Origin: a virus
Virus record (IMG/VR): IMGVR_UViG_3300042908_001045
Coordinates: 22,306 to 86,305 of that record
DNA: 64,000 nt
Reading direction: 5' to 3' (one strand)
Program-made: the position numbers and the translations under genes
Notes under the pieces: generated by a model
Seen by the model: only the letters and a program-made list of their open reading frames with translations
Told to the model about the DNA's origin: nothing
Databases searched by the model: none
Shown: piece after piece, positions 22,283-59,924 of the stretch
How the letters are laid out: each line of letters starts with the position of its first letter
How positions within the stretch are numbered: the first letter of the stretch is position 1

Positions 22283-22389
22283 AGAAAAAATTCTGAGGGC
22301 AAGAAAATGAAAGATGTAGATTATCCTGAAAGACCTAGATAAAATATAGTAGTAGTAGTTTTTAGCTTCCCCTTGGAAGCTATTGTTTT

Positions 22390-24616: not shown

Positions 24617-24994
24617 ATGAAAATTAATTGGAACAATATTCAAATACCAGCTAATGCTAAATCTACTTTAACGTGGTCAGTAGATTATGCAAGCATTGTT
24701 CATGAAGGTACTGGGGCTAATTATCCGCCTCGTCCATGGGTAGATGAAGCTAGAAGACATTTCCAGAATGAATTTAACAATTATGCTACAAACGCTTTAA
24801 ATTCTGCTGATTATAAGCAAGCATTTTACAGTATTACTAAAGATTTTGGGCAATTGTGCCAAGATAAAATAGAAGAATCAATTTATCCTTGGCCGGGTGA
24901 GACTAAAAGGAAAAGTGGCGATATAGTTACTTCTCCTCGAAATATTGTTGATACAAAAAAGTTATACAATTCTTACTTAATTACTCACGAATGA
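24617..24994 (+). CDS. Tail completion protein (HK97 gp10-like)
   Basis: YASIVHEGT...PPRPW motif. Confidence 0.65.
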   Translation: MKINWNNIQIPANAKSTLTWSVDYASIVHEGTGANYPPRPWVDEARRHFQNEFNNYATNALNSADYKQAFYSITKDFGQLCQDKIEESIYPWPGETKRKSGDIVTSPRNIVDTKKLYNSYLITHE

Positions 24995-25368
24995 ACTTAG
25001 TAGAACTAAACACTAAATTACGCGCGTTGTTAACTCCAGAGTTAGGTACGTATAGTAATGGCGCGCTATCTATTTGGGCTTATGGATCTAGTAATCCACC
25101 TCCTTCTGTTAGTAATGGATTAGAATGCTTGATTAGGCAAGTGCCTCTTGGGTATGCAAAGTCGTCTAGTGCTGGGCAAAAATACAAAATTCAAGAATGG
25201 GAGATATATTTAAAAAACTACAAAAAAGATTTAAATTTATCTAAAGCAATAATTAAGATAGAAAAAAGTTTTTCAGTTATACAAGTAGTCCATATGCCTT
25301 ATAGTTTAGATACAATTGAACAAGCAAGAATACTTATTAAGGATCCAATAGTTTTTCAGTCTTTCTAA
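24991..25368 (+). CDS. Putative tail terminator
   Basis: Size and position immediately before the tail tube genes. Confidence 0.5.
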   Translation: MNLVELNTKLRALLTPELGTYSNGALSIWAYGSSNPPPSVSNGLECLIRQVPLGYAKSSSAGQKYKIQEWEIYLKNYKKDLNLSKAIIKIEKSFSVIQVVHMPYSLDTIEQARILIKDPIVFQSF

Positions 25369-25410
25369 TAAAATGGCAATTATAAGTTAATAAAGGATTA
25401 AAAGAAGCTC

Positions 25411-26442
25411 ATGCCATTAGCCACAGCATCTGTTGTTTTACAAAGTTATACACTTGATTTAATGCTTTTGGGACTTAATGTTTTTGGCGCTTCAAACAGA
25501 TTTGTAGCCAAAGATATTTTAACAGTCCAGAATAATGCTGCGGTTTATGACAAAAGTATTATTTTAAAAAGTAACTCAAGTACTGGAACTTATTTAAGAG
25601 CTGGAACAGGAATTAGTTTTAGTGGTGTTAATTACAGAAATCAAGTAGTAGTAGCAGAAGACATTACTGTAACTGGATCTAGTGGTTCTGTTACATCAGT
25701 AAAAGTAGAGCCATTGTTAAAACCATTGTCTAGTGGAGTAACTGGGACTGTTTTAGCTCCTGTTAGAATGATTCTTAATTCAGTTGACACAACTAATAAT
25801 ATTGACACTTGGCGATTTGTAGATTCAATGACAACAATTGAAGGGTTAAGCCCATTTACTAGAGCAGTGATAAGTATTGTTAATCCCGTGGCTGGCTCTT
25901 CTCCTATAATGATACCTCAAAATGCTAATCTTGATTTTGGTTCTTTAACTCCAATTAATCCTGATGTTGTTTTTTTAAATTCAACATCCAGCTCAGTTAT
26001 TTATTTTAATGGTAGCCCAAATACACTAAATATTTCTGCTGGTTCACAAGCAAGTTATTTAACTGGTTCTATTCCATTGTGTGGTATTCAAACAATGGAT
26101 TTAAGTAATCAAGATACTCAAATAGATATTACAACGTTTCAATCTGGACTTGGGACAGATTCTAACACAGTAAGATATTCTCGCTCGTATTCAATTTCTG
26201 GCATTTCATTGTCTGGGGATGAGGCACTTGAAAAAATAGTTAAACCAGCTGCTGGACTAAAATCTATATCTAATGGGAAAGAAGTGTATGCAATAGCTAC
26301 TTTTCCTGATGGAGAAAGAATAGAAGGAGTTGCTGTAATAAACAATTTGAATTTACCTACCAATCAAAATGAAGTTAAGAAATATTCATTTACTTTAACT
26401 TTTCTTGGTAAAAATTTTAATTGGGATTCTCCTATAATTTAA
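25411..26442 (+). CDS. Tail tube protein paralog 1 (343 aa)
   Basis: MPLATA N-terminus and core PLCGIQ.DLSNQDTQID.T.FQSG...GDEALE...FPDGE...NQNEVKKYSFTLTF shared with the next three genes. Confidence 0.7.
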   Translation: MPLATASVVLQSYTLDLMLLGLNVFGASNRFVAKDILTVQNNAAVYDKSIILKSNSSTGTYLRAGTGISFSGVNYRNQVVVAEDITVTGSSGSVTSVKVEPLLKPLSSGVTGTVLAPVRMILNSVDTTNNIDTWRFVDSMTTIEGLSPFTRAVISIVNPVAGSSPIMIPQNANLDFGSLTPINPDVVFLNSTSSSVIYFNGSPNTLNISAGSQASYLTGSIPLCGIQTMDLSNQDTQIDITTFQSGLGTDSNTVRYSRSYSISGISLSGDEALEKIVKPAAGLKSISNGKEVYAIATFPDGERIEGVAVINNLNLPTNQNEVKKYSFTLTFLGKNFNWDSPII

Positions 26443-26500
26443 TAAAGCTAAAGTTGGATATATCTGGCAAGTATAAAGTAAGAAAAGGATTAAAAGTCTT

Positions 26501-29500
26501 ATGCCATTAGCCACAGCATCTGTTATTTTACAAAATTACACACTTGATTTGATGCTTTTAGGGACTAGTGCGTCTGGAGCGTCTAATAGATTTGTGGCTA
26601 AAGATATTTTAACAGTTCAGAGCAACGCAGCTATTTACGATAAAGATATTGTATTAAGAACTAGTTCAACTAGTGGAACGTATTTAAGAGCTGGGCTTGG
26701 AATTAGTTTTGACGAATCTGGCTATAAAAATCAAGTAGTAATCGCACAAGATGTTACAATTGCCAGTAATGTAAATACTAACGTCAAAGTAGAGCCGTTA
26801 TTAAAACCATTATCTAGTGGAGTAACCGGTACTGTCTTGGCTCCCATTAGATTACAATTAACTTCAGTTGACACTACCAATAATATTGATAGCTGGTATT
26901 TTATAGATTTAATGCCAAAAATTCAAGGAAACAGTCCTTTTACTCAGGCAAAAATAAAAACTACTAATTTACCTGCTGATTCTCCTTCTGTAATGGTAAA
27001 AGAATCAAAACTTGCTTTTGGTAATACTGTTTTAACAATTGCAAATACTGATGTTATAAAAACTCCAATAAATTTATTTAATACGTTTGTTCGAGTTCAT
27101 ATAGCGTCGGTAGATTCTACTAATTTTGTTGATAGCTGGCGTTATATAGATTTTATGCCAACTATACAGGGAGAAAGTCCATTTACTCAATCAAAGTTAA
27201 GAGTTAGTAATTTAGACCGCAACACACAATCAGTAGTAGCTCCATATTCAAGTCTTGTTTTTGAAAATATTAATGTAAGTTTAACGGTATCTCCTGAAAT
27301 ATTTATTAGCTTTCTTGATACAATTAATGATGGTAATAGCTTATTTACTCAAGCTGTTATAGAGATGAGAAAACTACCTTTTGATTACAGCTCAATAACA
27401 GTACCTGATTCAACTTTTGTTTTTAATAATGTTCCATTAGCCACAGAAGTCAGTATTAGACCGCAAATTACTTGGGTTGACGAAGGCGTTGATGTTTACA
27501 TACATTCAATTAACACAAATAATAATATCGATACTTGGCGTTACATAGATTTTATCTCAAATATTGATAATGGAATTAGTCCATTTACTCAAGTAAATTT
27601 AGGAGTTAATAGATTACCATCTAACGCTCCATTTGTACAAATTCCGGATTCGGTACTTATTTTTAATGGAATTAGTACAAGTAAAAGCGTGCCTCCTGAG
27701 TTGTATGTTAGCTCTGTTGATACAAATAACAATGGAAATATTCTATATACCAAAGTTGTTGTAAAAACAAGAAAGATACCTTTTGATTTTTCATCAATAA
27801 CAATACCTGATTCAGCATTTACTTTTGGAAATGTTCAGCCAACTGCAAACGTTAATGCTGAAGCACGATTATCTTGGGTTGATGAAGGCGTTGATGTTTA
27901 TATAGATTCAATTAATACAAGCAATATTAATACTTGGCGTTATATAGACTTTGTCTCAGATATTGACAATGGAACTAGCCCATTTACCCAGGCAAGCATA
28001 AAAGTTAGTAGATTGCCATCTAACGCTCCATTTGTGCAAATTCCGGATTCAGTACTTACTTTTGATGGAATTAGCACAAGTAAAAGTGTACCTCCTGAGT
28101 TGTATGTTAGTTTTGTTGGTACAAATAATTTTATTGATACTTGGCGATTTATTGATTCAATGCCAACAATTCAAGGTAGTAGTCCATTTACACAAGTTAT
28201 TTTAAAGACAAGAAAAATACCTTTTGATACTTCTTCAATAGCTATACCTGATTCAGCTTTTACTTTTGCAGGTATTCAGCCAAGTACAGATGTGTCTAGC
28301 ATTAAAAACATTTTTTTATCTGGTGGTGATACTGCAACAGTTTATTATGCTGGTAGCCCAGATACTTCATTAATTTCTGTTGGATTGTTCAATACATTTA
28401 CAGCTTTTGTCCCTACTTCTCCTGGGTACAATGGAGTTATAATTAACCAAAATTCTGCATCAATAGTTTATTTTGATGGCGCTCCCAATCAAGTATCTGT
28501 TGCTGTTGGATCATTGTTTTCTTACGTTACCAATTTTATTGATACATGGCGTTTCATTGATTTAATGCCAACAGTTGAATCAATTAGTCCGTTTACACAA
28601 GCTAAAATAACAGTTACAGAAACGCCAGTAGAATACAATTTCGTAACAATACTTCAGTCTAGTCTTGTTTTTAATAATATTAGTGCAATTGAATCTAGCG
28701 TTGTAGTCAATAGAAACTCAGAAGCAATAATTTATTTTAATGGTAATCCACGTACCTTGCCTATTTCTATTGGATTGTCGTCTAATCCTTTTCCAGTATC
28801 AGTGCCTTCGTTAAATGACGTTAGAAATACTCTATTATCTGGTAACGATACTGCAACAATTTATTTTAATGGCATTCCAGGTACATTGCCTATTTCAGTA
28901 GGTTTATTTAACACATTTACAGCTTTTGTCCCTACTTCTCCTGGGTACAATGGAGTTATAGTTAACCAAAATTCTACATCAATAGCTTATTTTGATGGCG
29001 CTCCTGGCACGGTACCTATTTCAGTAGGTCTCTTTAATTCTTACGTTACCAACTTTATTGATACATGGCGTTTCATTGATTCAATGCCAACAGTTGAATC
29101 AATTAGTCCGTTTACGCAATCTAAAATAAAAGTTACAAAAACGCCAGTAGAATATGCCTCAGTGACTGTACCTCAATCTAGTCTTACTTTTAATGGGCTT
29201 ACTGCACTCGAAAGTAGTGCTATAGTTAACAGAAACTCAGAAGCAATAATTTATTTTAATGGCAGCCCACGGACTTTACCGATTTCTGCTGGGTTAACAT
29301 CTAGTTCTTTCCGTGTAACTGTTCCTCCATTGTCTGAAATTAAAAATACTGTTCTATCTGGCAATAATATAAAGAGAACAGTTTACTTTGATGGACTCCC
29401 AGGTACGTTGCCTATATCTACTGGATTGTTTAACACATTCACTGCTTTTGTTCCTCCAACACCTGGATATAATGGAGTTTTCATTGCTAGAAATTCCAGG

Positions 29501-30106
29501 ACTACAGTTTACTTTGATGGTGAGCCAAATACATTGCCTATTTCTACAGAATCATCTAATACTTATGTAACAGGAATTTTCCCTTTTTCTGCTGCACAAG
29601 AAATGGATTTAGATGAACAGGAAATACAGTTTTATGGAACAGATCCTGGTATTACTGAAATTTATTTTAACGGCAGTCCAAATACATTGCCTATTTCAGC
29701 TGGATCCCAGACAAACTATTTAACTGGTCCTATTCCTCTTTGTGGTATTCAGGCAATGGATTTAAGTAATCAAGATACTCAAATAGATACAACAACATTT
29801 CAATCTGGTGTTAAAACAGATGCTAGTGTTGTACGTTCTGCACGGTCTTATAATGTATCTGGGATTGCTTTAGTTGGGGATGAAGCATTGGAGAAAATAG
29901 TCAAAAAAGCAAATGGGCTAACTCCAACTTCATTTGAATTTGTAGGAGATGAAGTGTATGCTGTAGCCACATTTCCAGATGGAGAAAAGATAGAAGGCGC
30001 TGCTTTGATAACCAATCTAAGTCTACCTGGCAACCAAAACGAAGTTAAAAAGTATTCTTTTACTTTAACTTTTCTTGGTAAAAAAATGTCTCAAATTTTA
30101 CTTTAA
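26501..30106 (+). CDS. Tail tube protein paralog 2 (1201 aa) with large repetitive insertion
   Basis: Same termini as paralog 1; internal repeats with 402-bp and 519-bp periods; seven IDxW(R/Y)(F/Y)ID-type motifs. Confidence 0.7.
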   Translation: MPLATASVILQNYTLDLMLLGTSASGASNRFVAKDILTVQSNAAIYDKDIVLRTSSTSGTYLRAGLGISFDESGYKNQVVIAQDVTIASNVNTNVKVEPLLKPLSSGVTGTVLAPIRLQLTSVDTTNNIDSWYFIDLMPKIQGNSPFTQAKIKTTNLPADSPSVMVKESKLAFGNTVLTIANTDVIKTPINLFNTFVRVHIASVDSTNFVDSWRYIDFMPTIQGESPFTQSKLRVSNLDRNTQSVVAPYSSLVFENINVSLTVSPEIFISFLDTINDGNSLFTQAVIEMRKLPFDYSSITVPDSTFVFNNVPLATEVSIRPQITWVDEGVDVYIHSINTNNNIDTWRYIDFISNIDNGISPFTQVNLGVNRLPSNAPFVQIPDSVLIFNGISTSKSVPPELYVSSVDTNNNGNILYTKVVVKTRKIPFDFSSITIPDSAFTFGNVQPTANVNAEARLSWVDEGVDVYIDSINTSNINTWRYIDFVSDIDNGTSPFTQASIKVSRLPSNAPFVQIPDSVLTFDGISTSKSVPPELYVSFVGTNNFIDTWRFIDSMPTIQGSSPFTQVILKTRKIPFDTSSIAIPDSAFTFAGIQPSTDVSSIKNIFLSGGDTATVYYAGSPDTSLISVGLFNTFTAFVPTSPGYNGVIINQNSASIVYFDGAPNQVSVAVGSLFSYVTNFIDTWRFIDLMPTVESISPFTQAKITVTETPVEYNFVTILQSSLVFNNISAIESSVVVNRNSEAIIYFNGNPRTLPISIGLSSNPFPVSVPSLNDVRNTLLSGNDTATIYFNGIPGTLPISVGLFNTFTAFVPTSPGYNGVIVNQNSTSIAYFDGAPGTVPISVGLFNSYVTNFIDTWRFIDSMPTVESISPFTQSKIKVTKTPVEYASVTVPQSSLTFNGLTALESSAIVNRNSEAIIYFNGSPRTLPISAGLTSSSFRVTVPPLSEIKNTVLSGNNIKRTVYFDGLPGTLPISTGLFNTFTAFVPPTPGYNGVFIARNSRTTVYFDGEPNTLPISTESSNTYVTGIFPFSAAQEMDLDEQEIQFYGTDPGITEIYFNGSPNTLPISAGSQTNYLTGPIPLCGIQAMDLSNQDTQIDTTTFQSGVKTDASVVRSARSYNVSGIALVGDEALEKIVKKANGLTPTSFEFVGDEVYAVATFPDGEKIEGAALITNLSLPGNQNEVKKYSFTLTFLGKKMSQILL

Positions 30107-30122
30107 CAAATAAGGAGAAATT

Positions 30123-30920
30123 ATGCCTTTAGCTACCGCTCCAGTTATTTTACAAGATTATTCTTTAGAAGTAATGCTATTGCCTTTGGTTACAAGTGGG
30201 TTTGCTGCTGGAACTTCTGATAGAAACATTAGTTCGTTAAGACGTGTTCTTACTTGTACTACTCAAGTTGCACCTCCTACCAGCGGTGGTGTAGCTACAC
30301 TTGCATTGACCACTGATGAAGGTAGTAGTTCTTCTCCAACAATCATTAAGGAAGGCACTGGATTATCGTTTATAGAACCACTTGCGCAAAATGCCCCAGC
30401 TGGAACTGTTAGAACTAGAATTCAAGTAATGGCTGCTGAAGATAAAAGTATTGCGCATGGCGCTAGTGCTACTGATTTGAAAGTAATTGGACTAGACAGA
30501 ACTATTGCTGCAAATAGCACGGCTGCATTAATTGAGGGTTTACTCCCATTAAGCGGTATTCAAACACTAGATTTGAGTAATCAAGAAACTCAAGTTGATA
30601 CCACTTCTTTCCAATCTGGATCCGGAACAGAAATGGCAATGATTCGCGTGGCTCGTGCCTATTCCGTGTCTGGTATTGCATTGGCTGGAGATGAGGCGCT
30701 CGAAAGAGTAGTTAAACCAGTTGCTGGATTTCAGGGAGAATTTTTTGGTAGAGAAATTTATGCTGTAGCTACATTCCCAGACGGTGAAAGATTGGCAGGT
30801 GCTGCTAAAGTAACTGCGTTTAACTTTCCAGCCAACCAAAACGAAGTTAAAAAGTACAGTTTTACGCTAACATTTATGGGTAAATCCTTTGAATGGAATC
30901 CTCCATATTCTATTAGCTAA
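30123..30920 (+). CDS. Tail tube protein paralog 3 (likely major tail protein)
   Basis: Compact version of the shared core; strong AAGGAG RBS. Confidence 0.75.
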   Translation: MPLATAPVILQDYSLEVMLLPLVTSGFAAGTSDRNISSLRRVLTCTTQVAPPTSGGVATLALTTDEGSSSSPTIIKEGTGLSFIEPLAQNAPAGTVRTRIQVMAAEDKSIAHGASATDLKVIGLDRTIAANSTAALIEGLLPLSGIQTLDLSNQETQVDTTSFQSGSGTEMAMIRVARAYSVSGIALAGDEALERVVKPVAGFQGEFFGREIYAVATFPDGERLAGAAKVTAFNFPANQNEVKKYSFTLTFMGKSFEWNPPYSIS

Positions 30921-30922
30921 AT

Positions 30923-31648
30923 ATGTCTTTTTCCCAACCACTTTGCAACAGCTCTCTTGACGTAATGCTGCTTCCCAGCAACAGTGCGGGAAGCACTATT
31001 ACTGACGTTACGAAGGTGACAGCTTTAATTGCTCAAACTGCTAACATTGGGTCTTCTCAAATCTATTTGCAAGTCGTCGGTGGATCTTACTTTGTTCCCG
31101 CCGGCATTGCTTTGTCTTTTGCGGGAACTTCTGTTAGTGGCGTAGCGTCTAGGCGAAGACAAGTTGTAATATCTCAAGATGTTGTGTTAACAACAAGTCC
31201 ACTATTAGTTCCGGTAGAGCCTTTACAATATCCGGTACTGCAAACTGATAGCGCAGTCGTTGTACCTGGATTACTCCCAATTAATGGTATTACGACTTTA
31301 GATATTTCAGCTCAAGAAACTTCTGTTGACACAACTAATGCTTCATCTCGTAAAGGAGTGAATAGCGTTTTCATACGCAGGGCGATCAGCTGCAATGTTA
31401 GCGGCATTGCGTTGGCTGGAGACAAGGCGTTGGAGACAGTAATTAAGCCAGCTGGAATATTCTCTAATAGTTTGTATGGTAGAGATATTTATGCTGTAAT
31501 TACTTTACCTAATGGAGAGAGAATTGTTGGAGTGGCTAAAGTTGGTGGCATATCTTTCCCAGCTAATCAAAACGAAGTTATGAAATATTCGTTTAACTTA
31601 ATATTCCAAGGAGATTTACTTGAGTGGACTTCTGCTTTTAGTTTTTGA
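30923..31648 (+). CDS. Tail tube protein paralog 4
   Basis: GLLPINGITTLDISAQETSVDTT...SGIALAGDKALE...PANQNEVMKYSF. Confidence 0.7.
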   Translation: MSFSQPLCNSSLDVMLLPSNSAGSTITDVTKVTALIAQTANIGSSQIYLQVVGGSYFVPAGIALSFAGTSVSGVASRRRQVVISQDVVLTTSPLLVPVEPLQYPVLQTDSAVVVPGLLPINGITTLDISAQETSVDTTNASSRKGVNSVFIRRAISCNVSGIALAGDKALETVIKPAGIFSNSLYGRDIYAVITLPNGERIVGVAKVGGISFPANQNEVMKYSFNLIFQGDLLEWTSAFSF

Positions 31649-31705: not shown

Positions 31706-31939
31706 ATGAAGATTTTAACAGACAGTACTCAGCTCCTTGCCGTATTAATTAATTGCACCAGAGAAGGAAAATCCTTGTATTGTGGTGCTGCTATTTTTAA
31801 AGGGGGATTATCAGGAACTATTAATGTTTCTGATAAATTTAGTTCGTATACAATTAAAGTTCCAGAATCAGTTGCTAAAACTGCTACTAAAGAATGTTAT
31901 ATTGATGAGTATGATTCTTTAGAATTTGAGATTGTGTAA
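31706..31939 (+). CDS. Small tail-region protein
   Basis: 77-aa ORF between the tube and chaperone genes. Confidence 0.6.
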   Translation: MKILTDSTQLLAVLINCTREGKSLYCGAAIFKGGLSGTINVSDKFSSYTIKVPESVAKTATKECYIDEYDSLEFEIV

Positions 31940-31940
31940 A

Positions 31941-32771
31941 ATGCTTGGATTTATCACTGGCAATCCTAAAACTAATTTTATAAAAGTAGGAGATGTGCTT
32001 TTCTTTCCCAAGAAAGACGGTATTACTGTTGGGGAAAGAAGACAACTAGCCGAAACAGAACAAAGTAGGCAGCATGCTTCTTTGAAGATTCGTCGATTAG
32101 TTGGAAAAATTGCGCAACAAAAAGGGATTTCACTAGAAGAAGCTACAAAACTTTTAACTGGTGGTATGACCGAACAAGATGGTGTTGAGGTCATTGACAA
32201 CACTGAAGTTGTATTAGAATATGCTGATGATTTAGCTGATATCAATGCTTATACATCTAGCATGGAACTTAACCTAAAATCTGTTGTAGCAACAATGCTT
32301 ATTAAAGAGCGTGTTGCACATATTATTAGTGTTGTTGTAGATGCTAATAAAGATGACAAAAAGTTGGTAATTGAGCCTTTGCCAGCAGATTTTTTACTAG
32401 AAAAAGGCACTAAAATTAGATTTGGGGAGAGTTACGAAAATTCATTCATTGTAACAGTAGAAGATAATTATAGCGAAAATGCAGAACAAATTAGAGTTTC
32501 TGCATTACCTAAAAATATTACTGCTGGAACAGTTGGATTTTTACATAGAGGAAAAATTCCTTTACTTGGTTATCCTAGTTGGAATTTAGAAAAGACCTAT
32601 TCTTTAGATGAGACTTTGGTAGATGAAATTTACGATTTTTATCTTAATGAGTCTAGCAGATGGAAAAAAATAGAAGAAACTGAAACGCAGGGGGAGGATC
32701 AACTGGAGAGTCGGAAATTCCCAGAATTGACTGGGAAGGACTCTACTGGAGAATTCAGTCTTACAGAATAG
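31941..32771 (+). CDS. Tail assembly chaperone (gpG-like)
   Basis: Position after the tube genes; G GGG GAG slippery site at 32690..32696; ATG at 31941 preferred over TTG at 31926. Confidence 0.7.
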   Translation: MLGFITGNPKTNFIKVGDVLFFPKKDGITVGERRQLAETEQSRQHASLKIRRLVGKIAQQKGISLEEATKLLTGGMTEQDGVEVIDNTEVVLEYADDLADINAYTSSMELNLKSVVATMLIKERVAHIISVVVDANKDDKKLVIEPLPADFLLEKGTKIRFGESYENSFIVTVEDNYSENAEQIRVSALPKNITAGTVGFLHRGKIPLLGYPSWNLEKTYSLDETLVDEIYDFYLNESSRWKKIEETETQGEDQLESRKFPELTGKDSTGEFSLTE

Positions 32772-33106
32772 CTGATCCCAGATTTACTAGCTGGGAATCA
32801 TATTTAGAGCAACTTGATTACGTAGTTTTTAATTGCATTAATCAAATGGAGAAGCTACGCCAACAAGAACTAAATATGCAAGCTAGAGTTCATGCTATTG
32901 GCTGGGCAGGACTATTTAATGGATTTAAAGGTAAAGACGATCCATCTATTAAATACACTGATTTACTGCCATTCCCAGACAGAAGCAAATCTGAAGGAAA
33001 TGGCGTATTAAGTCCAAAAACTAAAACTATTATTGAGGACGCTATTAAAAAACGGGAATTGCCAATACAAACATTAACTTCTTTGGCAATGCTTCTGGAA
33101 AAATAA
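32690..33106 (+). CDS. Tail assembly chaperone -1 frameshift extension (gpT-like)
   Basis: The -1 frame is open from 32684 (after TGA 32681) through IDWEGLYWRIQ... into track ORF 32846..33106. Confidence 0.7.
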   Translation, partial: GGGSTGESEIPRIDWEGLYWRIQSYRIADPRFTSWESYLEQLDYVVFNCINQMEKLRQQELNMQARVHAIGWAGLFNGFKGKDDPSIKYTDLLPFPDRSKSEGNGVLSPKTKTIIEDAIKKRELPIQTLTSLAMLLEK

Positions 33107-37985: not shown

Positions 37986-37987
37986 GA

Positions 37988-49195: not shown

Positions 49196-52100
49196 TTAAC
49201 GTTTTGGAATTGTTCCACCTTGTCTTTGCTGGCGTTGAATTTCATTTAACACAGCAGATTGTACGGCAGACCTTAATTGACTTGCATCTAATCCATTAGA
49301 AGATGCATTATTACCATTAGATTCAATGTTGATAGGAATATTAACAACATTGCTATTAGAAGTATTTTCAGTATTAATTGTTGGTGCTACTCCTGCATTT
49401 ACAACACCGCCACTCGAATAATTCATAGTTCTGTGAAATTGCTTTTCCTCTGGAGATACAACACCGCCACTCGAATATGTTCTTATCTTTTCTACAATTC
49501 CACCATCTGCATGAAATTGCTTTTCCTCTGGAGATACAACACCGCCACTCGAATATGTTCTTATCTTTTCTACAATTCCACCATCTGCATAATTTCTTAT
49601 TTCAGAACTGCCATTGCCTTTCATGTAATTATTTGTTCTGTTAAATTGCCGCTCTTCTATTAAAGCGTTTGAAGATACAACACCACCATCTGAATATGTT
49701 TTTATCTTTTCTATAATCCCGCCATCTGCATAATTTCCTATTTCAGAACTGCCATTGCCCTTCATGTAATTATTTGTTCTGTTGAATCGCCGCTCTTCTA
49801 GCAAAACGTTATAGTCAATTACTCTATGCAATCCAGCATCTTCAAATCTCTTATTCTGTTCTACTGTTAATACTCTCTCTCCTGGCGTTAATACTGCAAG
49901 CACTGGTTTTATGCCACCATTAGCTGATTTTTCTTTTAGAACAGCTTGGTTAATTGATTGGATAATTCCACCGCCTGCATAGTTAGGCACAACTCCAGTA
50001 CTGGTTACTTCTCCTCCGGTAAATGCTGTTGATGCTTTCTTGCCACCACCTCCAAACAATCCTCCAATTGCAGAAAACAATCCTCCAAGTAATCCACCTT
50101 CTCCTACTAATGATTGAAGCAGCATCTTAATAGCCATGTTAATGAGTCCGCTTAGTATGCTATTAGCTAAATTACCAAGGACATCATTCAGTGTTCTTAC
50201 GCCCATAATCACATCAGTAAATCCAGAAGATAAATCGTTAATTAGATTATCTGTCACGAGTTGTTTCATAGTAGACAGTATGTCTTTGTTAGCATCTCTA
50301 ATGCTTTTTACTCTTTCCTCATATTCAGCAGTATATTGACCTTCTCTTTCATTAAATTGTTCTTGAGTCATTTTTCCTGCGCTAACTTCAATCTTAGCCT
50401 CCTCAATCTTTTTGTCTCTTTCCTTAGCTGCTTGTTGTATTTCCAAATCTCGTTGCATCCGATTAGCCACAAATTCATTACCACCTCCACTTCTATACCT
50501 GCTTATTTGAGAAGACTTTATAGAATCTGTTATAGCTGTGGAGGCATCTGTAAATGCTTTAGCTCTGTCTGCCTCAAGTTTTTTTATTTGCTCTAATTTT
50601 AAATTTTCGCTTTTTTCAATCAAAGCTGTTCTTTCTTTTTCTGAAAGCAATATACTAGTTTTGATTTCTTCCTGTTTAATTGCTGTTATTTTTACAATCT
50701 CATCCATTTTCTGTGTAAATTCGTTTAAGCTATAAGCATAATCAACAGAATTTATTAAATCTCTTTTTTGATATTCTAAATCTACTTGTGTTTTATTTTC
50801 ATTTGCTTTATCAATTTCAAATTGAGATTGATTTTGCATTCTTTTTATTCTAGTAATTTCTCTATAATTCTCTATTCTTGCATTTGCATCTGTTGATGTT
50901 AATAGTCCTTTTGACTCCAACTCTTTTGTGTTTAATTCATATTGCGCTAAAGCATCTTCAATCTGAAGTTTCCTCTCTTCAAATTGCAGTTCTGGCACTG
51001 AACGAATATTTAAGAATTGCATTTGGTTAAATGGCGTAAGTCCTTTGGTAAAAGAATCTTGTGTTACAGGAAAATAAGCATTTCCTTGGAATTCGTAGTC
51101 TTTTGAATCGAGATCGAGCCCAAATTCGTGTCTATTAGCTTTCATTTGCAAGCCATTAAATCTTGGCTCTTTAAGGTTTGCTGTTGGTTTATTTAGGTCT
51201 GTGATTAACTGAAAAGCTGACAAAGCATTATTTAATTGCGTTTTTCGACTAGTATTATTTTTAGTATCGGTTTCAAATTTTGCTATATCTAAATTATATT
51301 GTTCAGTATCTTGTTTATATTTGGCATATTGTTCTTGAGATAACGTAGTTAGTAATTCTGGGGTAGAATAAATTTTGGACAGCCTTTGATGTTCTTTATG
51401 CAACCTTTCCTTTTCTTGGGTTGTACTATTTGTTATTTCCTTAATAGAATTGCCTATATGTTCTACTAGTAATTCTTGTGACGTAAAAATATTTGGATTA
51501 TTCTCTAGATTAATGTCTCGATCAGATATTTCTATAAAAGAACCTGGATTTGCTGATTCCTGTAATTCTATTTTTACCCCATACTCTCCTATCTCTTTAT
51601 TTTTTTGACTTACATCTAATTCAGCTTGTCTTAAAACATTATCCGAATCTCTTATTTTAGATCTATTCTCATACTCTCTTCTAAGCCTAGACATTGCTTT
51701 AGTTAATTTAATCCTTTCTTCAATTTCTTTCTTTTGAACGTCTATCGACTTCAAGGTAGTATTTAAAGTTGCTATATCCACTTTGAATTGAGAAGCTAAT
51801 TGTTGTTCGTCTTTGTTAAGGCGATCTAGATATTTCTCTCTTTGTTTTACATCTGTGATTTGCTCAAGCCCTTTCCTAAGTGGGTTAAACAAAGCTAACG
51901 TATCAGTTAATTTACCATCGGTTCCTTTTACAAAGGATTGCCTAAGATTATTTAATCTCTCTTGGATATCTTGTCTTGTATCATTTAACCTATTAAGAGT
52001 TTCGGTTAACTTTATGCTTTCGGGTGTTAGTGGATCAGGTAATTTATCAGGAGAATATTCGTTAAGTATGTCAGAAAAAGATCTTGTTAAACTATTAGTG

Positions 52101-55100
52101 GAATCCCTAGATTCTCTGATTGTTTTTCTAGTATTTTTAAAGAAATTATCAAGATTACGAATAACTGATGCCTCATTTTGTTTCCTTAAAGCTTCAGCAC
52201 GCTGTTTATTTGCCTCATCTTGTTGTTTAAGAATCTCTTCTCTTTGTTTTTGAGAATCTGCGACAGCACCAGTGTTTACGCCAGCAGATGAAGGGGTAGA
52301 TGAAGCAGAAGAAGTCGCATTTATACGGTTTATAGAACTAGTTATATATTTAGCTGGATTTATTTGTATTCCATTTTCTTTTATTTCTATGTGGGCGTGA
52401 GGTCCCCTGCTGTTCCCTGTATTACCTACTGTCGCTATTTGTTCTCCAGCTTTAACTTGTTGCCCAACCGTGGCAAGTGTTGAGTCTAAATGTGCAATTA
52501 ATATTTCTAATTTCTTATTGTCTACCAAATGTTCTACTTGAATATATTTCCCCCATCCACCAGGCTGATTACCAATGTTTGAAATTTTACCGTCAAAACT
52601 AGCAACAACGGGAGTACCAACTGGGGCTGCATAATCAACTCCTTGGTGCATTCTACCCCTTCTCATCCCGTATCCACTTGTAAAAGTAGAATTTCCTGCT
52701 ACTGGATGAATTATGTTAGACGCGTTTTGTGATACGTTAGATGCATTTTGTGAAAAACCAAACAAGCTAGACAAAGAAGAAAAGACATTCTGAATATTGT
52801 TAGGGTTAGATGAATTACTAGATGTTGAAGAGCTGTTAGTAGGAGTTGATGGAGTAGGTGTTGTATTGGAATAAGGGTCTATTTTTATGCCCGCAGATTT
52901 TTCTAGCAAGTCAACAGTTTGTTGCAAGCTAACATTCATATTAGAAACAGACTCGTTAGTTTTTATCATGTTTTCATTTAATTTTTCAGTGTTTTTATTA
53001 GCCTCCCCTGACTCTTTAACAGTTTGTTGAGTCTGTTCGGTTACTTTTGCTGCTGATGCTCTAACTGTGTTTATTAAAGCCTCTAGTTCTTTACTTGATT
53101 GCGTAAAGGCTTCTTTCATATCAGATTCAATATCTTCTGTGACTCCAATAATATCTTTACCAGAAGGTAATGTTTCAATAAGATCTTTTGCTTCTATTTG
53201 ACTATCTTTGATTCTATTTTTAAAATCTAAACTAGTTCTTTCAGTATCTATTTGCCCTAAAGCGGTCTGATTTAATTGCTCTATAATAGATACCAGCCCA
53301 TCTATATATCTAGTAAACTCAGTGTCTCCTAATCCAGTTAAAGCTTCATTAATTTTGGTCTTAAAATTAGCGTTTTGTATTTCTTGGTTAGCTTTTTTAA
53401 TCTCTAATCGCCCTTGATCTATCTCTCTAGTAACAGAACGAACGTAATCATCTACTTGTTTTTGCTGTTGTTCCAAAGCTTGTTTTAAATCGTATTTAGA
53501 CTTGGCAATTTCGGCTTTCCCCGCAGCTAATTCACCTGCATCATTCTGAACTTGATCACGCAATTCTTTTATTTGATCTTTAACATCAGTAGTAAGAAGC
53601 GTTTGCGGAATTAATGACAAAGTGTCTAGAGAAGCCTTTCGCATTGTTAATATTCTAGATAACCCTCTAACTTTTTGTTCTCCAGAAATAATCCCAGATT
53701 GCATTATGGCGTTGTTAATGTCGCCAGAGTTAGCCCCAGAGGAATATATGCGTTCACTTCTCATTGACGATGTCCTGCCTATTGCAGCAGAAAACTTTTC
53801 GTAAGCCGATTGAAATCTGTTTAACGCAGTAACAGTTTTTTGGTAAATACTTTCAAGTGGATTGGTCGGAAGATTTTGAGACACAATCTTCTTGGCTTCT
53901 TCAGCACCAGCTTTAAGCTCTTCTACTAATTTTCTGTATTTAGGGCGTACTGCCTCTGGTATAGAATCAATAGATGATTCAAACTGTTTTACAGTTTCCT
54001 CCATGACTGCAACTTGATCTTTAATGTCATCAAGTCCCTTCGTTTTTTCTTTAAATCTATCGGTTTTAGCTTTTATTTCTTTATCAATTTCAGCTACTTT
54101 TTTAATGTCTTCCGGTTTTTTGCTAGAAGATATTTTTGCCCTTTGCAGAGATAAAGCCATTATTTCAGCATTTATCCTGTTTGCATCCTCAATGGATTTT
54201 TTTACCGCAGGATTTGACAATAACTTACTTTTGGTTTCTTCAGTAAGTCCTATGTCTTTTGCTTTAGTCTTAAACCCTTTAAGATTCTTATCTAAATTTT
54301 CAAAATTTTCTAGTACTTGTTGTGTTCCCAAAGTAATATCATAATCTGAATCTGCTACAAGTCCTGTTAGCCCATATTGCTGTATAATAGCTTTTTGATT
54401 ATTAGTAAGTTTTTTGTTTGCTGATGGAGTTCCACCAATTGGTGTTCTCATCCAGTCGCCAGAAGCTTCAGCTTGCCTACCTTGCAAAACTTCTTTGTAT
54501 TTCATTTTTTCAAGAATACCTAAGTCTTTTTCACTTATTTCGCCTCTTAATGCTTTATTGACATTTTTAACAAAATCGTCTGTAGTATATCCTTTATTTT
54601 TAAATCCAAGAGCAAATAAAATATCTAGCTGCAATCCTTTTGATGGAATTGAGTCTGCAATAGATTTAATGCTTGTCCCTACATTACTGCTGATATTACT
54701 TGTATTTTGAAGGCTTTTATTCATTCCATCAATAGTATTTGTAATGCTATTCAAAGAACCATTAATAGCAGAAGCCATTTTATCCATGGACTGTTGAACA
54801 GGATTAGAAAAATCACTTTTAGATAATAAAAGTATGCCTATTGCTAATATAGCTTCCGCTAACAAAGTAGCTAAAGATTTAGCGGCTTTACCCACATTAG
54901 CCAACATCTGAGGTAAATTTGTTGCTGATTGAGCCACAGAAGAAAGAGCAGCTTTAAAAACCGTAAAAGCACTAGATAAAGCTGTCAAAATTGGTCCGGC
55001 TAATTGAACAGCTAAAGAACGTATTTGTCCAAGAACTAGTGTTAATGCTATAAACTCTAAAACTCCAGAAGGAATCATCTTAAACAAGTTAGTTAAAGAT

Positions 55101-58100
55101 TCTATAAGCGATTGAAAAGGATTACTAGAAACTTCTTTGCCAATAATTACTGATAAAAGTCCTTCTCCTGTAAATTGTTGTTTAATTTGATTTACCGTAG
55201 TAACAATCATAGCCATATAATTTTTAAAACTGTCAGCTATAATTTGAAATGGGTTATGCTCAGCGAACATAGATGCAACTCCCGCCATTATATGAGGTGC
55301 TGCAACTGAAAAAACAGAAGTAATTAGTGGAGCTATTCCAGCAGTCAACAAACCAACAAAACTAGTTGCCCAAGCAGCTATTGGAGTAGATTTAAGCAAA
55401 AATGTTAATCCAGTTGTCATTAAAGCCGCAGCTCCAATAAAGAAAGAACCAACAGCTTTTAGCGCTAAATCAAAAGAATTACTTATTAGTTGTGCAAATC
55501 CAGTAACTACATTGGTAATTCCAGCTAATGTGCCAGAAAACGCGTTAATTATCTTAAAGCTAATTTCAGTTGCAATATTTTCTAGTTTTACTAATGCAAC
55601 AGCAAAACTATCTCCAGTGTCGGAAGAACCTTTAAAGTCAGTTTTTAATACTTTCGCCACTTTTGGCAATACTTCTTCCGATAACAATGCGCCTTGCTTA
55701 GACAACTCAGTTACTTCTGCAACAGAAACACCTAAAGCTTTAGCAAATACTTGCATTGCAGGGGGAAATCGCTCTCCTAACTGCTGCCTTAATTCTTCCA
55801 TTGAAATTTTGCCTTTAGAGAGCATTTGAGTATATGCCATGAAGACAAGACTAGCATCCGCAGTTCCAAGCCCCATACTAGCAATAGACTGGTTAATTCC
55901 CTCAAATAATTCTTTAGCTCCTTTGCCTTCCAACTTTGTCCCTTTGGCTGCGGCAGCTATTTTACCGTAGGCATCTATTGCACTTTCTGCTGGAACTCCT
56001 ATTTGCTTTGCAGATTGAAGTGCATAATCTGTTTCCATTATAGCGCCCTGTTTACTACCAGAAGTAAATTCAAGACGTTTTTGCATTGGTTCAAGTTTTT
56101 GGAAAAGTTGTACAAACTTTTCAAATTGAGTAATTGCAACAAAAATAGCACCACCAACTGCTAAGAAAAGAGGAGCTAAACTTTGAACCATTTTTGCAAT
56201 TCCACCAATACTCCCATCTTGAGAGTCAAACGAAAACAAACCTTTAAAAGAATCAAATAACTGCTCCATTAAAGGTTTTTGTGCTGTTTCAAATTGCTGT
56301 TTGGCATCTGCAATAATTTGGCGTACATCCAGCCCTTGTGATTTGCCTGCTTTTATACTATCTGCAAATATTTTACCAACTTCTTTCATTGCTTCTTTTT
56401 CATTTACAAACCCTCCAGATTTGTATTTCTGAGCAAATGTTTGTAACTGCTTATCTATAGCGTCTCTTTGTGCTATTAGTTGTTGTCGTTGAGCAGCTGA
56501 TGTCGCAGGATTTGATATTAACTTATTAATTGTCTTCTTGTATTGTTCAGATATTTTGTGGGAAGAATATACCAAGGAAGCCATCGCGCCATTTTCAAAG
56601 CCTTTACCAAAGTCAAGTCCGATTGACTCCATAATTTTTGAAGGAGAACTAATTTTAAGCACAGATTTGACCTTGGTAATTATAGACTTAAAAATGTTTC
56701 CAACAGGCTCAAATCCTTTTTTTAAATTAGTAGCACCTGCCAAAAAACCTTCAGAGACACTTGTGCCAATTAATTTAAAATTGTTAAATACATGACTAGA
56801 TGTTATTTTAGGTATTAAGTTTTTTACTAGATTTTTGTCAGGCAAAACAAAATTTTCAGAAGAGTTATTGCTTTTCAAAAATGTATTTTTAAAGGATAAA
56901 ACTACATTTTTGACGAAATTATTTAATTCAGGAATTTTATTTTTAAGTCCTATTATTAAACCTTGTATAAATTTTTCCCCAATATCTATAGCGACTGTAG
57001 ACGGAGATTTGATGCCCAACTCTGATTGAACGCCTTTTTTAAATTTTTTACCCGCTTCCTTGCCTACTTTGTCCATGTCGGCGACACCAGACTTCATGCC
57101 TTTAACAACTTCTTTGCCAGTATTATTAAGATTTGCTGCGTCAGAAACTTTGATTTCATCAAATTTATCCGATGCTTTTACTACAGTTCTCGCTGTGGTG
57201 CCTTGTACTTTTAATGAGTCCCTAATCATATCAGGAGAGGACATATTTTCAAAATCTTTCCCCTTAAATCCTGAAGAACTATTTTTCATTTCTGCACTTA
57301 CACCAGTAAAGTAGTCGTCCTGTATCATTTTTGTTAGAAATGTATCAAACTCTTCTCTATTATATTTTCCTTCTTCTAGTTTTCTTCTTAATTCGTAAAT
57401 AGGTACTAATCCTTGATAATCTCCTTGAGTATCTAGTTTTGTGAATAAATTTGCAATGTCTTTTTTAAATGTGTTATACGAGTGTTGTGATGTTTTAGAT
57501 ATTTCTTCAAAAGACTTCTTTTTAAGCATTCCTAGATGCTGGGATTCTAGGGAAAAATGTGTTCTAGTAAAGCCACCGGGTTTAATAGCAGCTTCTTGTT
57601 CTTGTGGAGTAGCACCACTGTCTTGATATAGCCTAAAATAATCATCACCTTGCATATCCGACAAATATTGCTCAATTTGCGCTTGAGAATACCTTTTATC
57701 AGGCAACATTGTTTTAAGTTGATGAATGGACATAGAACCACCATCACTTAAATCTTCTCCAATATTGAGTTCCCTATATAAACCTAAAGCATCTTTTTTG
57801 AATTGATCGTACGTAGGTTGTATTTCAGTTTTGGAAATAGGTTTAGGAGCAGGAGCAGGCTTGGGAGCAGGAGCAGGCTTGGGAGCAGGAGTAGGCTTAG
57901 AAGAACTTTTTGCTATTGTTTTAGCATTGTTTTTATTATCTTCATTAATTTTTTGATAAGTACTTTTTAAATCGTTAGAAACATCAGCATAAGATTTTTC
58001 CGCATTATTTATCATTTTTGCTATTTTAGATATTTCTTCTACTGTTGCTCCAGTGCTTTTAGCTTTTTCTTTTAGGTTTTTAAGTGCTTCTAAATTTTCT

Positions 58101-59924
58101 TCTGACATTTTTTTGTAGTTAATAAAAACATTTTTAAAAGCAGTAAAATCCTTAGAGATAAGTAGTTTAGAACCGGTTTCTAATGCAATAGCGGATTGTT
58201 TTTGGTAATCGACAAGTAGCTTTGCAGCTTCTTTGTTAATTATCTTAGCTTCATCTGTTGCTTTAGGTACTGGCGCTACAACAGGTGGTGCAGTTACGAC
58301 AGGTGGTGCAGTTACGATAGGTGGTGCAGTTACGATAGGTGGTGCAGTTACGATAGGTGGTGCAGTTACGATAGGTGGTGCAATTTCATCAAACTTATCT
58401 GATGCCTTTACTACAGTTCTCGCTGTGGTGCCTTGTACTTTCAATGAATCCCTAATCATATCAGGGGAAGACATATTCTCAAAATCTTTCCCTTTAAATC
58501 CTGACGAGCTATTTTTCATTTCTGCACTTATACCAGTGAAGTAGTCATCTTGTATCATTTTTGTTAAAAATGTGTCAAACTCTTCCCTGCTATACTTTCC
58601 TTCTTCTAGCTTCCTTCTTAATTCGTAAATAGGTACTAGTCCTTGATGATCTCCTTGCGTATCTAGTTTTGTAAACAAGTCTGCAATGTCTTTTTTGAAC
58701 GTGTTATAAGAATGTTGCGATGTTTTAGATATCTCTTCAAAAGACTTCTTTTTAAGCATCCCTAAATGCTGGGATTCCAAGGAAAAATGTGTTCTAGTAA
58801 AGCCACCAGGCTTAATAGCAGCTTCTTGTTCTTGTGGAGTAGCACCACTGTCTTGATATAATCTAAAATAATCATCACCTTGCATATCCGACAAATATTG
58901 CTCAATTTGCGCTTGAGAATATCTTTTATCAGGCAACATTGTTTTAAGTTGATGAATGGACATAAAACCACCATCACTCAAATCTTCTCCAATATTGAGT
59001 TCCCTATATAAACCTAAAGCATCTTTTTTGAATTGATCATAAGTTGGTTCTACTTCCGCTTGCTTACTTTTCTTAGGAGTTGTGGCTGTTTTCTTTGCTT
59101 TTATTTTTGGTGTTTCTGGTATTTTCTCCTCTTTTATTTTTGGTGCTTCTAGTATTTTCTCCTCTTTTATTTTTGGTGCTTCTGGTATTTTCTCCTCTTT
59201 TATTTTTGGTGGTTGCACTGTTTTTTTAACTGTTTCCGCGCTTTCTTGTTTAATTTTTTGGTAATTTTCTTTTAATGTTTCAGATGTTTGATTATAAGAT
59301 TGTTGCATCTTGTTAATAGCATCAACTACCTGGTTTAGCTCTTCTGCCGCTGCTCCAATATTCTTAGCTTTATTCTGCAATTCATTAAGAGCATTAATGT
59401 TAATATTTAATATCTCTTTGTATTTTATAAAAACATTTTTAAACTCTGAAAAGTTTTTAGATTTAAGTAATTTTAAACCAGCTTCTTGTATTTCTTTAGA
59501 TTGTTTTTCATACTCAGCTAATAGAGCGCTAGATTCTTCAGACAAGTTAAGACTAGCAGCCGCTGCCGCAGAAATATCCTCTTTGATTTCTTCATAACTT
59601 GTTGATTGGTTTTTCTTTTTGGATTTACCTGTATTTGCAGACTGTTTTTTAGCTTTAGGTTTTTTCTCCTTTTTAAGTTTAGTTAACTCTAAATTTTGAA
59701 AATCTTTTTCATCTGTATTTAAAGGGTTATCTACGTCTGTACCTACAGGTTTATCTGTTTGCATCAAGAAAAACCATTGATAAATATAATCATCAGGAAT
59801 TCCCGCATCAAGCTGTTCAGCAGTATATTGATTTGTTTCTTGTATAGTCCCTAAATCAAGTTTATCAGCTTTTTGTAAACGAAACAAAGCAGCATCTAAT
59901 TCTTTTCTCCTAATATGTTTTAAT
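49196..59924 (-). CDS. Tape measure protein, C-terminal part (tape-measure domain, M23 peptidase)
   Basis: SKGKISMEELRQQLGE tape domain (~55650..56090); M23 HQGVD...HLD...GNTGNSRGPHAHIE (~52350..52710); LGIKSPS motifs; YAGGG...LTPGERVL C-terminus. Track start 59887 is an internal TTG. Confidence 0.9.
57153..59045 (-). repeat. ~660-bp duplicated block plus Pro-rich microrepeats in the tape measure gene
   Basis: YDQFKKDALG...KASDKFDEI occurs twice; APP(I/V)VT 18-bp units (~58281..58381); PAPK units (~57840..57900). Confidence 0.9.

Follow-up and report, generated by a model that had tools for sequence, protein, structure and literature searches.

Four tandem tail-tube paralogs, two with internal decorations, in a CrV-like cyanosiphophage, and the case for a mixed tail tube

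Multi-copy and decorated tail tubes in described phages

A tail tube is conventionally taken to be a homopolymer with a single kind of subunit, and the statement in an earlier note on the DNA analysed here, that siphoviruses usually have a single tube gene, holds as a rule. It is not universal, since tandem tube paralogs have been published for actinophages. Genes 22 and 24 of Gordonia phage FortCran encode paralogous tube proteins of ~43% identity, one of them longer, with a 51-aa C-terminal extension; another gene lies between the two, and the duplication has no assigned role (PMC12859696, PMC11080557). Duplicated major tail genes are likewise conserved group-wide in actinophage clusters DJ, EL and others.

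The decorated tube protein gp17.1* of phage SPP1 originates by frameshifting. Plain gp17.1 and decorated gp17.1* subunits occur together in a mixed tube, and lambda gpV, T5 pb6 and the JBD30 major tail protein present an Ig-like domain projecting from the tube core (PMC7666168, PMC11445458). In T5 pb6 and in Thermus phage P74-26, whose tail reaches nearly 1 um, duplicated and fused tube domains form trimeric, pseudo-hexameric rings (PMC5717097, PMC10034513). Heterohexamers have been described for the Hcp proteins of Bacteroidales type VI secretion systems (PDB 9vne, 9vnd; PMC13035841).

True homologues of the genes described here are gp028-030 of phage CrV-01T (MH636380) and g28-30 of Cr-LKS4 (OQ625504), which lie between a terminator and a g31-33-like trio. 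Both triplets follow the same logic of a plain type-A, a decorated type-A and a type-B copy, with T3 of the present array 50-53% identical to g28 and g29, but they comprise three genes instead of four and carry a C-terminal Big_5 domain where the present array has an internal repeat insert. These main tail structural genes are still annotated as hypothetical in both cultured isolates and are not named in the AlphaFold proteome studies; the literature on the two phages contains no virion proteomics, cryo-EM or tail measurements for the clade.

The array resembles FortCran in encoding several paralogous tube proteins in a siphophage, although FortCran has two and lacks a repeat array, and it shares the arrangement of the actinophage clusters, to which it is an analogue rather than a demonstrated member. 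In lambda, T5, JBD30 and SPP1 the decoration is C-terminal, of known Ig or FN3 type, and encoded by a single gene, with or without a frameshift, whereas that of T1 and T2 is internal, has no recognised fold, reaches 1165 aa and is separately encoded. Tube-domain duplication in long tails is common to T5 pb6, P74-26 and this phage, but here the copies are unfused, each with a single core, and tail length does not follow copy number within the clade. The Hcp heterohexamers belong to a secretion system and handle lumenal effectors in mixed rings without external decoration. There is thus precedent for multi-copy tube genes; what is new is how large and variable the decoration is and that it sits internally, together with the split into types A and B.

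A four-gene tube array in the tail module

The window analysed is a stretch of 64,000 nt from IMG/VR record IMGVR_UViG_3300042908_001045 (record positions 22,306 to 86,305), with the array at positions 25411-31648. It belongs to a CrV-like cyanosiphophage from a lake, the presence of lambda-like tail-tip genes identifying the virion as that of a siphophage, and the phage probably infects a bloom-forming cyanobacterium of the Nostocales. The features of the tail region are the following (window coordinates, strand in brackets).

24617..24994 (+), tail completion/Neck1-like gene (PHROG 222, E 4e-5; 46% identity to Cr-LKS4 g26)
24991..25368 (+), tail terminator homologue, immediately 5' of the tube array
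25392..25404 (+), AAAGGATTAAAAG copy 1, translation-initiation region 5' of T1, exact match, 6 nt before the start codon
25411..26442 (+), T1, type-A tube paralog, 343 aa; its decoration is one A module with B modules on both sides
26484..26496 (+), AAAGGATTAAAAG copy 2, 5' of T2, exact match, 4 nt before the start codon
26501..30106 (+), T2, giant type-A tube paralog, 1201 aa; PF06199 match at residues 1080-1194
30123..30920 (+), T3, plain type-A tube paralog, 265 aa; AAGGAG Shine-Dalgarno
30923..31648 (+), T4, type-B tube paralog, 241 aa; orthologue of Cr-LKS4 g30 (46% identity)
31706..33106 (+), trio conserved 3' of the array: 77 aa; ~276 aa, probable start ATG 31941; 86 aa
33126..42353 (.), lambda-like tail-tip genes (K-, M-, I- and L-like, split J; PHROGs 30, 14, 31, 32 and 18)
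49196..59887 (-), tape measure protein of 3563 aa (PHROG 2335, E 2e-49) that has an M23 peptidase embedded in it

The array thus occupies the location expected of a tube gene, within the tail module and straight after the tail-terminator homologue. The trio downstream is homologous to g31, g32 and g33 of Cr-LKS4, with gene order kept, and its position suggests candidate tail assembly chaperones. Family searches with the trio returned no matches, and inspection for a G/GT-like programmed frameshift from the 77-aa to the 281-aa open reading frame found neither an overlap nor a slippery site, the likely ATG at 31941 lying 1 nt past the preceding stop. The tape measure also matches many other tape-measure PHROGs, with residues ~2390-2576 matched by peptidase and endolysin PHROGs, and at 1.5 A per residue it would set a tube of ~0.5 um.

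T1 to T4 are four open reading frames on one strand, intact as the earlier note had stated, and both BLASTP and the selection analysis below bear out that they are functional tandem paralogs. In pairwise BLASTP comparisons, T1 and T2 share 63% identity across their first ~189 aa, the alignment of T3 with T4 covers 250 aa at 41% identity (E 9e-53), and the C-terminal cores of the paralogs are 43-60% identical. No further tube-core open reading frame was found in the whole 86.3-kb genome, and a megablast search of the array against the phage collection gave no match. The note had described the shared parts as an N-terminal strand and a C-terminal core; the core stands, but the common N-terminal stretch is larger than a strand, covering ~110 aa that include a beta 'base' domain. 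All variable insertions fall between the base domain and the core, in agreement with the single insertion site originally proposed.

That the core is a tail-tube fold, on which the interpretation of the array had been made to depend, is borne out by profile matches and by structure. T1, T2 and T3 score 30.0, 25.9 and 27.6 bits on PF06199 (Phage_tail_2, TP901-1-like), all above the Pfam gathering score of 23.8 bits; T4, at 19.6 bits, falls under it, yet lies inside the family tree. The core, a beta-sandwich that has a long hairpin and is flanked by one helix, superposes on solved tubes, and its fold matches include terminators, distal tail proteins and tube initiators. Each open reading frame contains one full core match, in contrast to the fused double domains of T5 pb6 and P74-26, the additional small core matches in T2 reflecting B-module similarity over about 25 residues. 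Unlike lambda gpV, with its C-terminal Ig-like/FN3 domain, T1 and T2 have cores that reach the C-terminus and extra sequence that is internal, and profile searches of both detected no Ig families at E < 1. Recoding of the SPP1 gp17.1* type was not found either: the paralogs are separate, complete genes with their own start codons, and the decoration lies upstream of the core.

The translation signals of the four genes differ. The upstream sequence that T1 and T2 had been noted to share is AAAGGATTAAAAG, whose two exact occurrences in the whole window are those listed above, against a chance expectation of 0.54 at <=1 mismatch. T3 has the best Shine-Dalgarno sequence among the paralogs, whereas the T4 start lies 2 nt past the T3 stop without one, pointing to translational coupling of T4 to T3. 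Ribosome-binding sites were also considered as a guide to stoichiometry and dropped, given that the pattern was inconsistent between lineages and their strength did not consistently mark one paralog as minor.

Internal modules and length alleles of the T2 insert

T2 consists of the N-terminal strand and base domain, a ~860-aa repeat insert and the tube core, while the corresponding junction of T1 has gained ~100 aa. The T2 insert falls into two zones.

27089..28300 (+), T2 repeat zone 1, three ~134-aa units, each of two A modules and a linker
28301..29620 (+), T2 repeat zone 2, ~173-aa units (B-B/A-B)

The 134-aa and 173-aa repeats reported previously were recovered at offsets of 133-134 and 173, spanning residues ~197-600 and ~600-1040 of T2, respectively, with units 60-81% identical to one another at the amino acid level. 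These values come from windowed searches, as whole-protein BLASTP of T2 against itself yielded the self-match alone; Tandem Repeats Finder returned nothing, because the copies are too diverged at the DNA level. Two smaller modules make up these repeats: one, A, of ~55-70 aa (IDTWRFID...SPFTQ), and one, B, of ~43 aa (IYFNG.P.TLPIS.GL), which is homologous to the segment that natively precedes the core.

A search of 1.84 billion representative proteins matched the T2 insert only to itself and one T1 orthologue. Pfam and PHROGs searches of the inserts gave nothing at E < 1, an ESM Atlas search with the repeat modules produced no usable match, and none of the Pfam, ESM Atlas and 1.84-billion-protein searches linked the modules to a carbohydrate-binding or Ig family. 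Since the AF2 model of the module region has a pLDDT of 45-64, no fold is claimed for it.

The length of T2 is polymorphic. The 1201-aa form of this window contrasts with forms of 1505-1506 aa in near-identical contigs, which contain exactly one 132-aa unit and one 173-aa unit more, located after codon 379 in zone 1 (nt ~27638) and after codon 834 in zone 2 (nt ~29003). The breakpoints sit in DNA that is locally near-identical, and the appendage may accordingly change length through unequal recombination between repeat units. The first short-form junction is spanned by contigs that come independently from two other studies, runs X2 and X3; no bridging of the second (nt ~29003) was seen among the pieces listed.

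Type-A and type-B copies in the cyanophage clade and the proposed composition of the tube

Arrays of three tube genes are present in the Cylindrospermopsis phages CrV-01T and Cr-LKS4 and in many lake IMG/VR metagenome contigs, and a four-copy array is also found in one partial contig. Altogether, multi-copy arrays of 3-4 paralogs occur at about 25 loci in several lineages, while another group of relatives has one tube copy. Judged from these sequences, the array is a conserved trait of a cyanophage clade and not a peculiarity of this phage. In a tree of the cores, type B forms one clade (support 100/100) and is the last gene of every array; T1 and T2 are sisters (100/99), as are the plain and decorated type-A copies within lineages (100/99, 97/94, 100/99). 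This topology indicates that the A/B split is older than the divergence of all multi-copy lineages. The genes of single-copy relatives match type A at 5 of the 7 class-discriminating residues. Tape-measure frames span 4027-4226 aa in single-copy and 4473-6242 aa in three-copy relatives. A link between extra tube genes and extreme tail length was rejected, because the single-copy relatives carry equally giant tape measures and extra copies are hence not needed for a very long tube.

The decorations vary by lineage, yet four lineages carry them at one and the same internal site; in the CrV lineage a C-terminal Big_5 Ig-like domain follows the core instead (~105 aa, 47 bits). Values of dN/dS range from 0.05 to 0.43 per paralog, with 0.045-0.07 for the cores and 0.26-0.66 for the inserts, indicating that all copies are under purifying selection and functional. 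The base domain and inserts are the fastest-evolving parts, with decorations replaced from lineage to lineage, whereas the dN of type B is lowest or joint lowest in three lineage pairs and type B is identical at nine loci where type-A copies differ. It is consequently highly improbable, and we disfavour the reading, that a single copy matters and the rest, as recent duplicates, are dispensable and being lost. Duplication does recur, as seen in the upstream motif of T1 and T2 and in the identical 30-nt regions upstream of two plain copies in L023, and one-copy relatives exist; but every lineage retains all its copies intact and under constraint, the A/B split predates the multi-copy lineages, and a mutual identity of just 41-63% marks the paralogs as old.

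We lean, with little more than even confidence, towards an explanation in which all four paralogs, known here from their genes alone, enter one mixed, partly decorated tube. Each protein would contribute a single tube fold, made of the N-terminal strand and the C-terminal ~130 aa and split by an outward-facing beta base domain, T4 being the ancient, slowly evolving type-B copy retained last in every multi-copy relative. T1 and T2 would have had their base-core junction enlarged by internal duplication, in T2 by 860-1165 aa of lineage-specific modules. Polymerising round the 3563-aa tape measure into one tube, T3 and T4 would supply the bulk, with T1 and T2 scattered among them at lower occupancy and their beta-rich repeats sticking out from the surface. 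Types A and B have 58 conserved positions in common, clustering in the hairpin of the core and in the C-terminal strands, which may represent compatible interfaces and are offered as support for a mixed tube. From an internal decoration, frameshifting or readthrough cannot yield plain and decorated forms of one gene, and separate genes would therefore be needed. The repeats could act as low-affinity adhesins for host surface polysaccharide, a role proposed by analogy with the Ig-like domains of lambda gpV, T5 pb6 and SPP1 gp17.1*, since the modules match no carbohydrate-binding or Ig family. That the proteins co-assemble, the ratio in which they do so, the outward display of the repeats and what these bind are our inference.

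A more specific version of the mixed tube, which we regard as rather unlikely, is that every ring is an unfused A3B3 pseudo-trimer with types A and B in alternation, the plain and decorated paralogs serving as a common supply for its type-A places; this would be the separate-gene counterpart of the rings of T5 pb6, P74-26 and Hcp2-Hcp3. A minority possibility that carries some weight is a division of labour, in which one paralog, likeliest the plain type A, forms the bulk tube while the others are confined to specialised rings with a set place in the tail. Type B could then serve as one adaptor ring where the tube joins the tip or the neck, comparable to p140, the minor tube paralog of phage T5, and T2 could make one collar of six long fibres. 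Such an arrangement would fit a type B that is always single, undecorated, last in the array, slowest-evolving and distinct from type A in its N-terminal arm, and six inserts of 860-1165 aa per ring along the whole tube would probably be very bulky; fixed-position tube-fold paralogs are moreover normal in tails, as terminators, distal tail proteins and tube initiators illustrate. Single-copy relatives nevertheless dispense with type B while having a similar tape measure, which leaves no obligatory adaptor role for it in the clade. Type B also retains the full set of conserved tube-core residues, whereas terminators and Dit-like proteins have diverged, and coupling to T3 would suggest comparable, not roughly 100-fold lower, synthesis of T4.

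Alternatively, the paralogs might not mix within a particle but serve in separate particles or under separate conditions; the resulting virions would differ in surface properties, which could widen adsorption or help to evade host defences sensing tail-tube proteins. The fast evolution of outward-facing parts and the swapping of decorations between lineages would suit this, and tube-sensing defences exist, DSR2 being an example (PMC10981675). It is improbable given the organisation of the locus, where four close-packed genes on one strand show no terminator-like sites within 25411-31648 and no convincing excess of promoter-like sites (28 versus 33 expected). Contigs from RNA libraries overlap parts of all four genes, and one of 1095 nt crosses from T2 into T3, a hint of transcription from contigs that cannot prove it and whose depths cannot rank genes. 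No invertible or switchable element was seen, and the copies are conserved together in all lineages.

The mixed, partly decorated tube that we favour would bear on a clade that keeps three or four tube genes under selection and whose hosts are bloom-forming freshwater cyanobacteria (Raphidiopsis/Cylindrospermopsis, and Dolichospermum-associated contigs). The recurrent pairs of plain and decorated copies suggest a general route to displaying adhesins along a tail where recoding cannot add the decoration, and the private modules of T2, together with its unit-wise length variation, point to a quickly adjustable virion surface. Were the alternating A3B3 arrangement true, the tail tube would be the first heteromeric one among siphophages, a half-micron 'bottle-brush' tuned through gene dosage and unequal recombination of the T2 repeats, and a naturally occurring case of tail-side adhesins whose display density and length evolve independently of the tube core.

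Identity and paralogy of the tandem tube genes

The source of the window is a single contig of 86,305 bp with 35% G+C, of which the window covers positions 22306 to 86305. The region 25411-31648, directly 3' of a tail-terminator homologue, is occupied by four ORFs on one strand:

T1, first ORF within 25411-31648, 343 aa
T2, second ORF within 25411-31648, 1201 aa
T3, third ORF within 25411-31648, 265 aa
T4, fourth ORF within 25411-31648, 241 aa

The ORF 5' of the tail-terminator homologue matched tail-completion/Neck1 PHROGs. The phage tail tube family PF06199 was matched by the C-terminal ~110 residues of all four proteins, with 30.0, 25.9 and 27.6 bits for T1, T2 and T3 (gathering score, 23.8 bits) and 19.6 bits, just under the cut-off, for T4. 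PHROGs 820 and 1407 (major tail protein) were also matched. Foldseek searches with the AlphaFold2 model of T3 (pLDDT 74.9) returned solved siphophage tubes at the top (FCWL1, phage T1, phiXacJX1, monocin MttP, GTA, lambda gpV and SPP1), with E-values from 6e-6 to about 4e-2 and the best nine at or below 1e-3. The alignments comprised 127-146 residues spread over model positions 6 to 263, showing that one complete tube domain is formed jointly by the N-terminal strand and the C-terminal region, with residues ~20-130 as an inserted all-beta domain in the model. These matches support the proposal of the earlier note that the shared core (the C-terminal ~130 residues) is a tube fold. Its claim that the genes are paralogs is likewise borne out by pairwise comparison: T1 and T2 share 63% identity across their first ~189 residues, all pairs share 43-60% identity in the core, and T3 can be aligned with T4 over the full length (41% identity, E 9e-53). 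A whole-genome check identified no tube-core ORF beyond these four.

Distribution and expansion of the array

Homologues of the tube genes occur as a tandem triplet (249, 364 and 247 aa), annotated only as hypothetical, at the syntenic position in the cultured Cylindrospermopsis phages CrV-01T and Cr-LKS4. A profile scan of IMG/VR identified 38 loci, in which copy number was determined as core-bearing ORFs per locus, plus whole-record checks. Near-identical contigs carry four tube genes, as in the window, and so does one partial contig; several other lineages carry three, and one group a single gene. In a maximum-likelihood tree of the core, the last gene of every array, T4 included, formed one clade (type B, support 100/100), with the remaining copies and the single-copy genes in the other (type A). 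The two types have 58 conserved positions in common, mostly in the core, and type B presents a divergent N-terminal arm. Single-copy genes side with type A at five of seven discriminating positions, which makes type B the derived copy. Plain and decorated type-A genes are sisters within lineages (T1 and T2, 100/99; p1 and p2 of the related locus L011, 97/94, and of L019, 100/99), indicating repeated duplication or gene conversion.

Within the window, the sequence AAAGGATTAAAAG is limited to two sites, 25392-25404 and 26484-26496, which lie 6 and 4 nt 5' of the start codons of T1 and T2, and two plain type-A copies in another locus (L023, 830-2397) have identical 30-nt upstream sequences. This indicates that duplications of tube genes took their translation-initiation regions along, and that the arrays are still expanding. 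T3 has the sole consensus Shine-Dalgarno sequence (AAGGAG) in the array, and T4 starts 2 nt past the T3 stop codon, suggesting coupling to T3. Comparison of ribosome-binding sites across lineages gave no consistent pointer to paralog ratios. The phage was detected in lake metagenomes of many studies, and two metatranscriptome libraries from one study contain contigs over parts of T1-T4. One of these spans T2 into T3, which is compatible with co-transcription but no proof of it.

Decorations and the giant paralog

Each lineage has one decorated type-A copy, and the decorations are mutually unrelated:

Window lineage: A and B modules
L011 and L013: ~150-aa insert, Ser/Thr/Ala-rich
L021 and L019: one or two 'VEVGD' domains, ~70 aa
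CrV lineage: Big_5 Ig-like domain, C-terminal

Four of five decorations occupy a common internal site between the core and the base domain, the beta domain that follows the N-terminal strand. The 134-aa and 173-aa repeats that had been read in T2 are real, with windowed self-comparison yielding offsets of 133-134 aa at residues ~197-600 and of 173 aa at ~600-1040. The units share 60-81% amino-acid identity; at the DNA level the copies have diverged too far for Tandem Repeats Finder, which detected none. Iterated profiles resolved a module A (~55-70 aa, motifs IDTWRFID...SPFTQ) and a module B (~43 aa, motif IYFNG.P.TLPIS.GL). The 134-aa unit consists of two A modules and a linker, the 173-aa unit of B-B/A-B, and T1 has a single A module with a B module on either side. 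Homology between module B and the segment native to the decoration site indicates that the inserts expanded through internal duplication. Searched against 1.84 billion representative proteins, the 851-aa insert of T2 matched only itself and one T1 orthologue (P0104, 79% identity to T1).

T2 measures 1505-1506 aa in near-identical contigs, versus 1201 aa in the window. Two whole units, one of 132 aa following residue 379 and another of 173 aa following residue 834, make up exactly what the short form is missing; elsewhere the two forms are ~99% identical. The breakpoints fall within locally near-identical DNA (the first has a perfect 19-nt match), as would be expected if the units had recombined unequally. 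The first short-form junction is spanned with zero mismatches by contigs of two other studies, and is thus no artefact of the source assembly; among the contig pieces listed, none was seen to bridge the second.

Tube-gene duplication as such is not new. No description was found of the three- and four-gene arrays of the CrV-like cyanophage clade (which lack annotation in both isolates and go unnamed in the AlphaFold proteome studies), of an ancient A/B split together with recurrent plain/decorated type-A pairs, of tube decoration placed internally instead of C-terminally, or of a 1201-1506 aa tube protein built from private repeat modules varying by whole units.

Tail context and proposed assembly

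CrV has been described as a siphovirus, and lambda-like tip genes J, I, K, L and M are present elsewhere in the window. Other genes observed there include:

22588-23523 (-), sigma-70-type factor (regions 2 and 4) with an in-frame InsA-type zinc ribbon and HTH extension; the homologous gene in Cr-LKS4 and CrV-01T spans only 678 nt, and the extension thus seems specific to this phage
23604-24563 (-), 319-aa tail fibre/spike-like protein ending in a Peptidase_S74 intramolecular chaperone domain, encoded between head and tail genes on the opposite strand
31706-33106 (+), three small genes 3' of the tube array (77, ~276 and 86 aa), also in Cr-LKS4 (g31-g33)
34665-40709 (-), lambda-J-like central fibre apparently split into several ORFs: the N-terminal part of J (646 aa), its middle part (115 aa), a 145-aa ORF and one of 1106 aa, the last nearly all ~40-aa repeats (ATSDT..SLISLLKRLL); M- and K-like genes follow
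45159-46964 (+), FtsK/SpoIIIE-like ATPase, 601 aa (PHROG 1358, E 5e-70), between tail-tip and tape-measure regions
49196-59887 (-), tape measure protein, 3563 aa, M23 peptidase embedded

Neither a known family nor a frameshift signal was detected for the three small genes, whose position would allow a role as unconventional tail assembly chaperones. No recognisable chaperone is present either in actinophages of cluster DJ, which have two tube genes (PMC12859696).

If each residue spans ~1.5 A, the tape measure would correspond to a tail of ~0.5 um. Related cyanophage contigs have tape-measure frames of 4027, 4226, 4473 and 6242 aa (G001-G004, the records of loci L031, L032, L019 and L028; L041), the longest being a stop-to-stop frame confirmed on a sequence piece for at least 4136 aa. 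A length of 6242 aa would imply a tail of close to 0.9 um, comparable to P74-26, whose tail has been called the longest known (PMC10034513). Extreme tail length was rejected as the reason for extra tube copies, since frames of single-copy relatives also exceed 4000 aa.

Between lineage pairs, every paralog showed dN/dS of 0.05-0.43, with 0.045-0.07 for cores and 0.26-0.66 for decorations. These values contradict the reading of the extra copies as decaying duplicates, which is hardly credible; as judged from sequence, all tube copies are functional. In none of the three comparisons did another paralog have a lower dN than type B, which is identical in nine loci despite differing type-A copies. 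That the paralogs serve alternative tails, or escape from defences sensing tube proteins, appears improbable. An arrangement in fixed-position rings, such as a type B junction ring or a single T2 collar, has a better though still minor chance of being correct.

We lean, with slightly more confidence than doubt, towards a single tube in which all four proteins would co-polymerise on the tape measure, T3 with T4 making up the bulk and T1 and T2 interspersed, much as in the plain/decorated tube of SPP1. Internal decoration lies beyond the reach of 3' recoding, and would hence require separate genes. In a variant of this mixed tube, rings might alternate type A and type B (A3B3), a precedent being the Hcp2-Hcp3 heterohexamers of type VI secretion systems (PMC13035841), which were present among the fold matches to the tube model. 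The repeats of T1 and T2 would face outward and may act as low-affinity adhesins, a role akin to that of the Ig-like domains of lambda gpV, T5 pb6 and JBD30.
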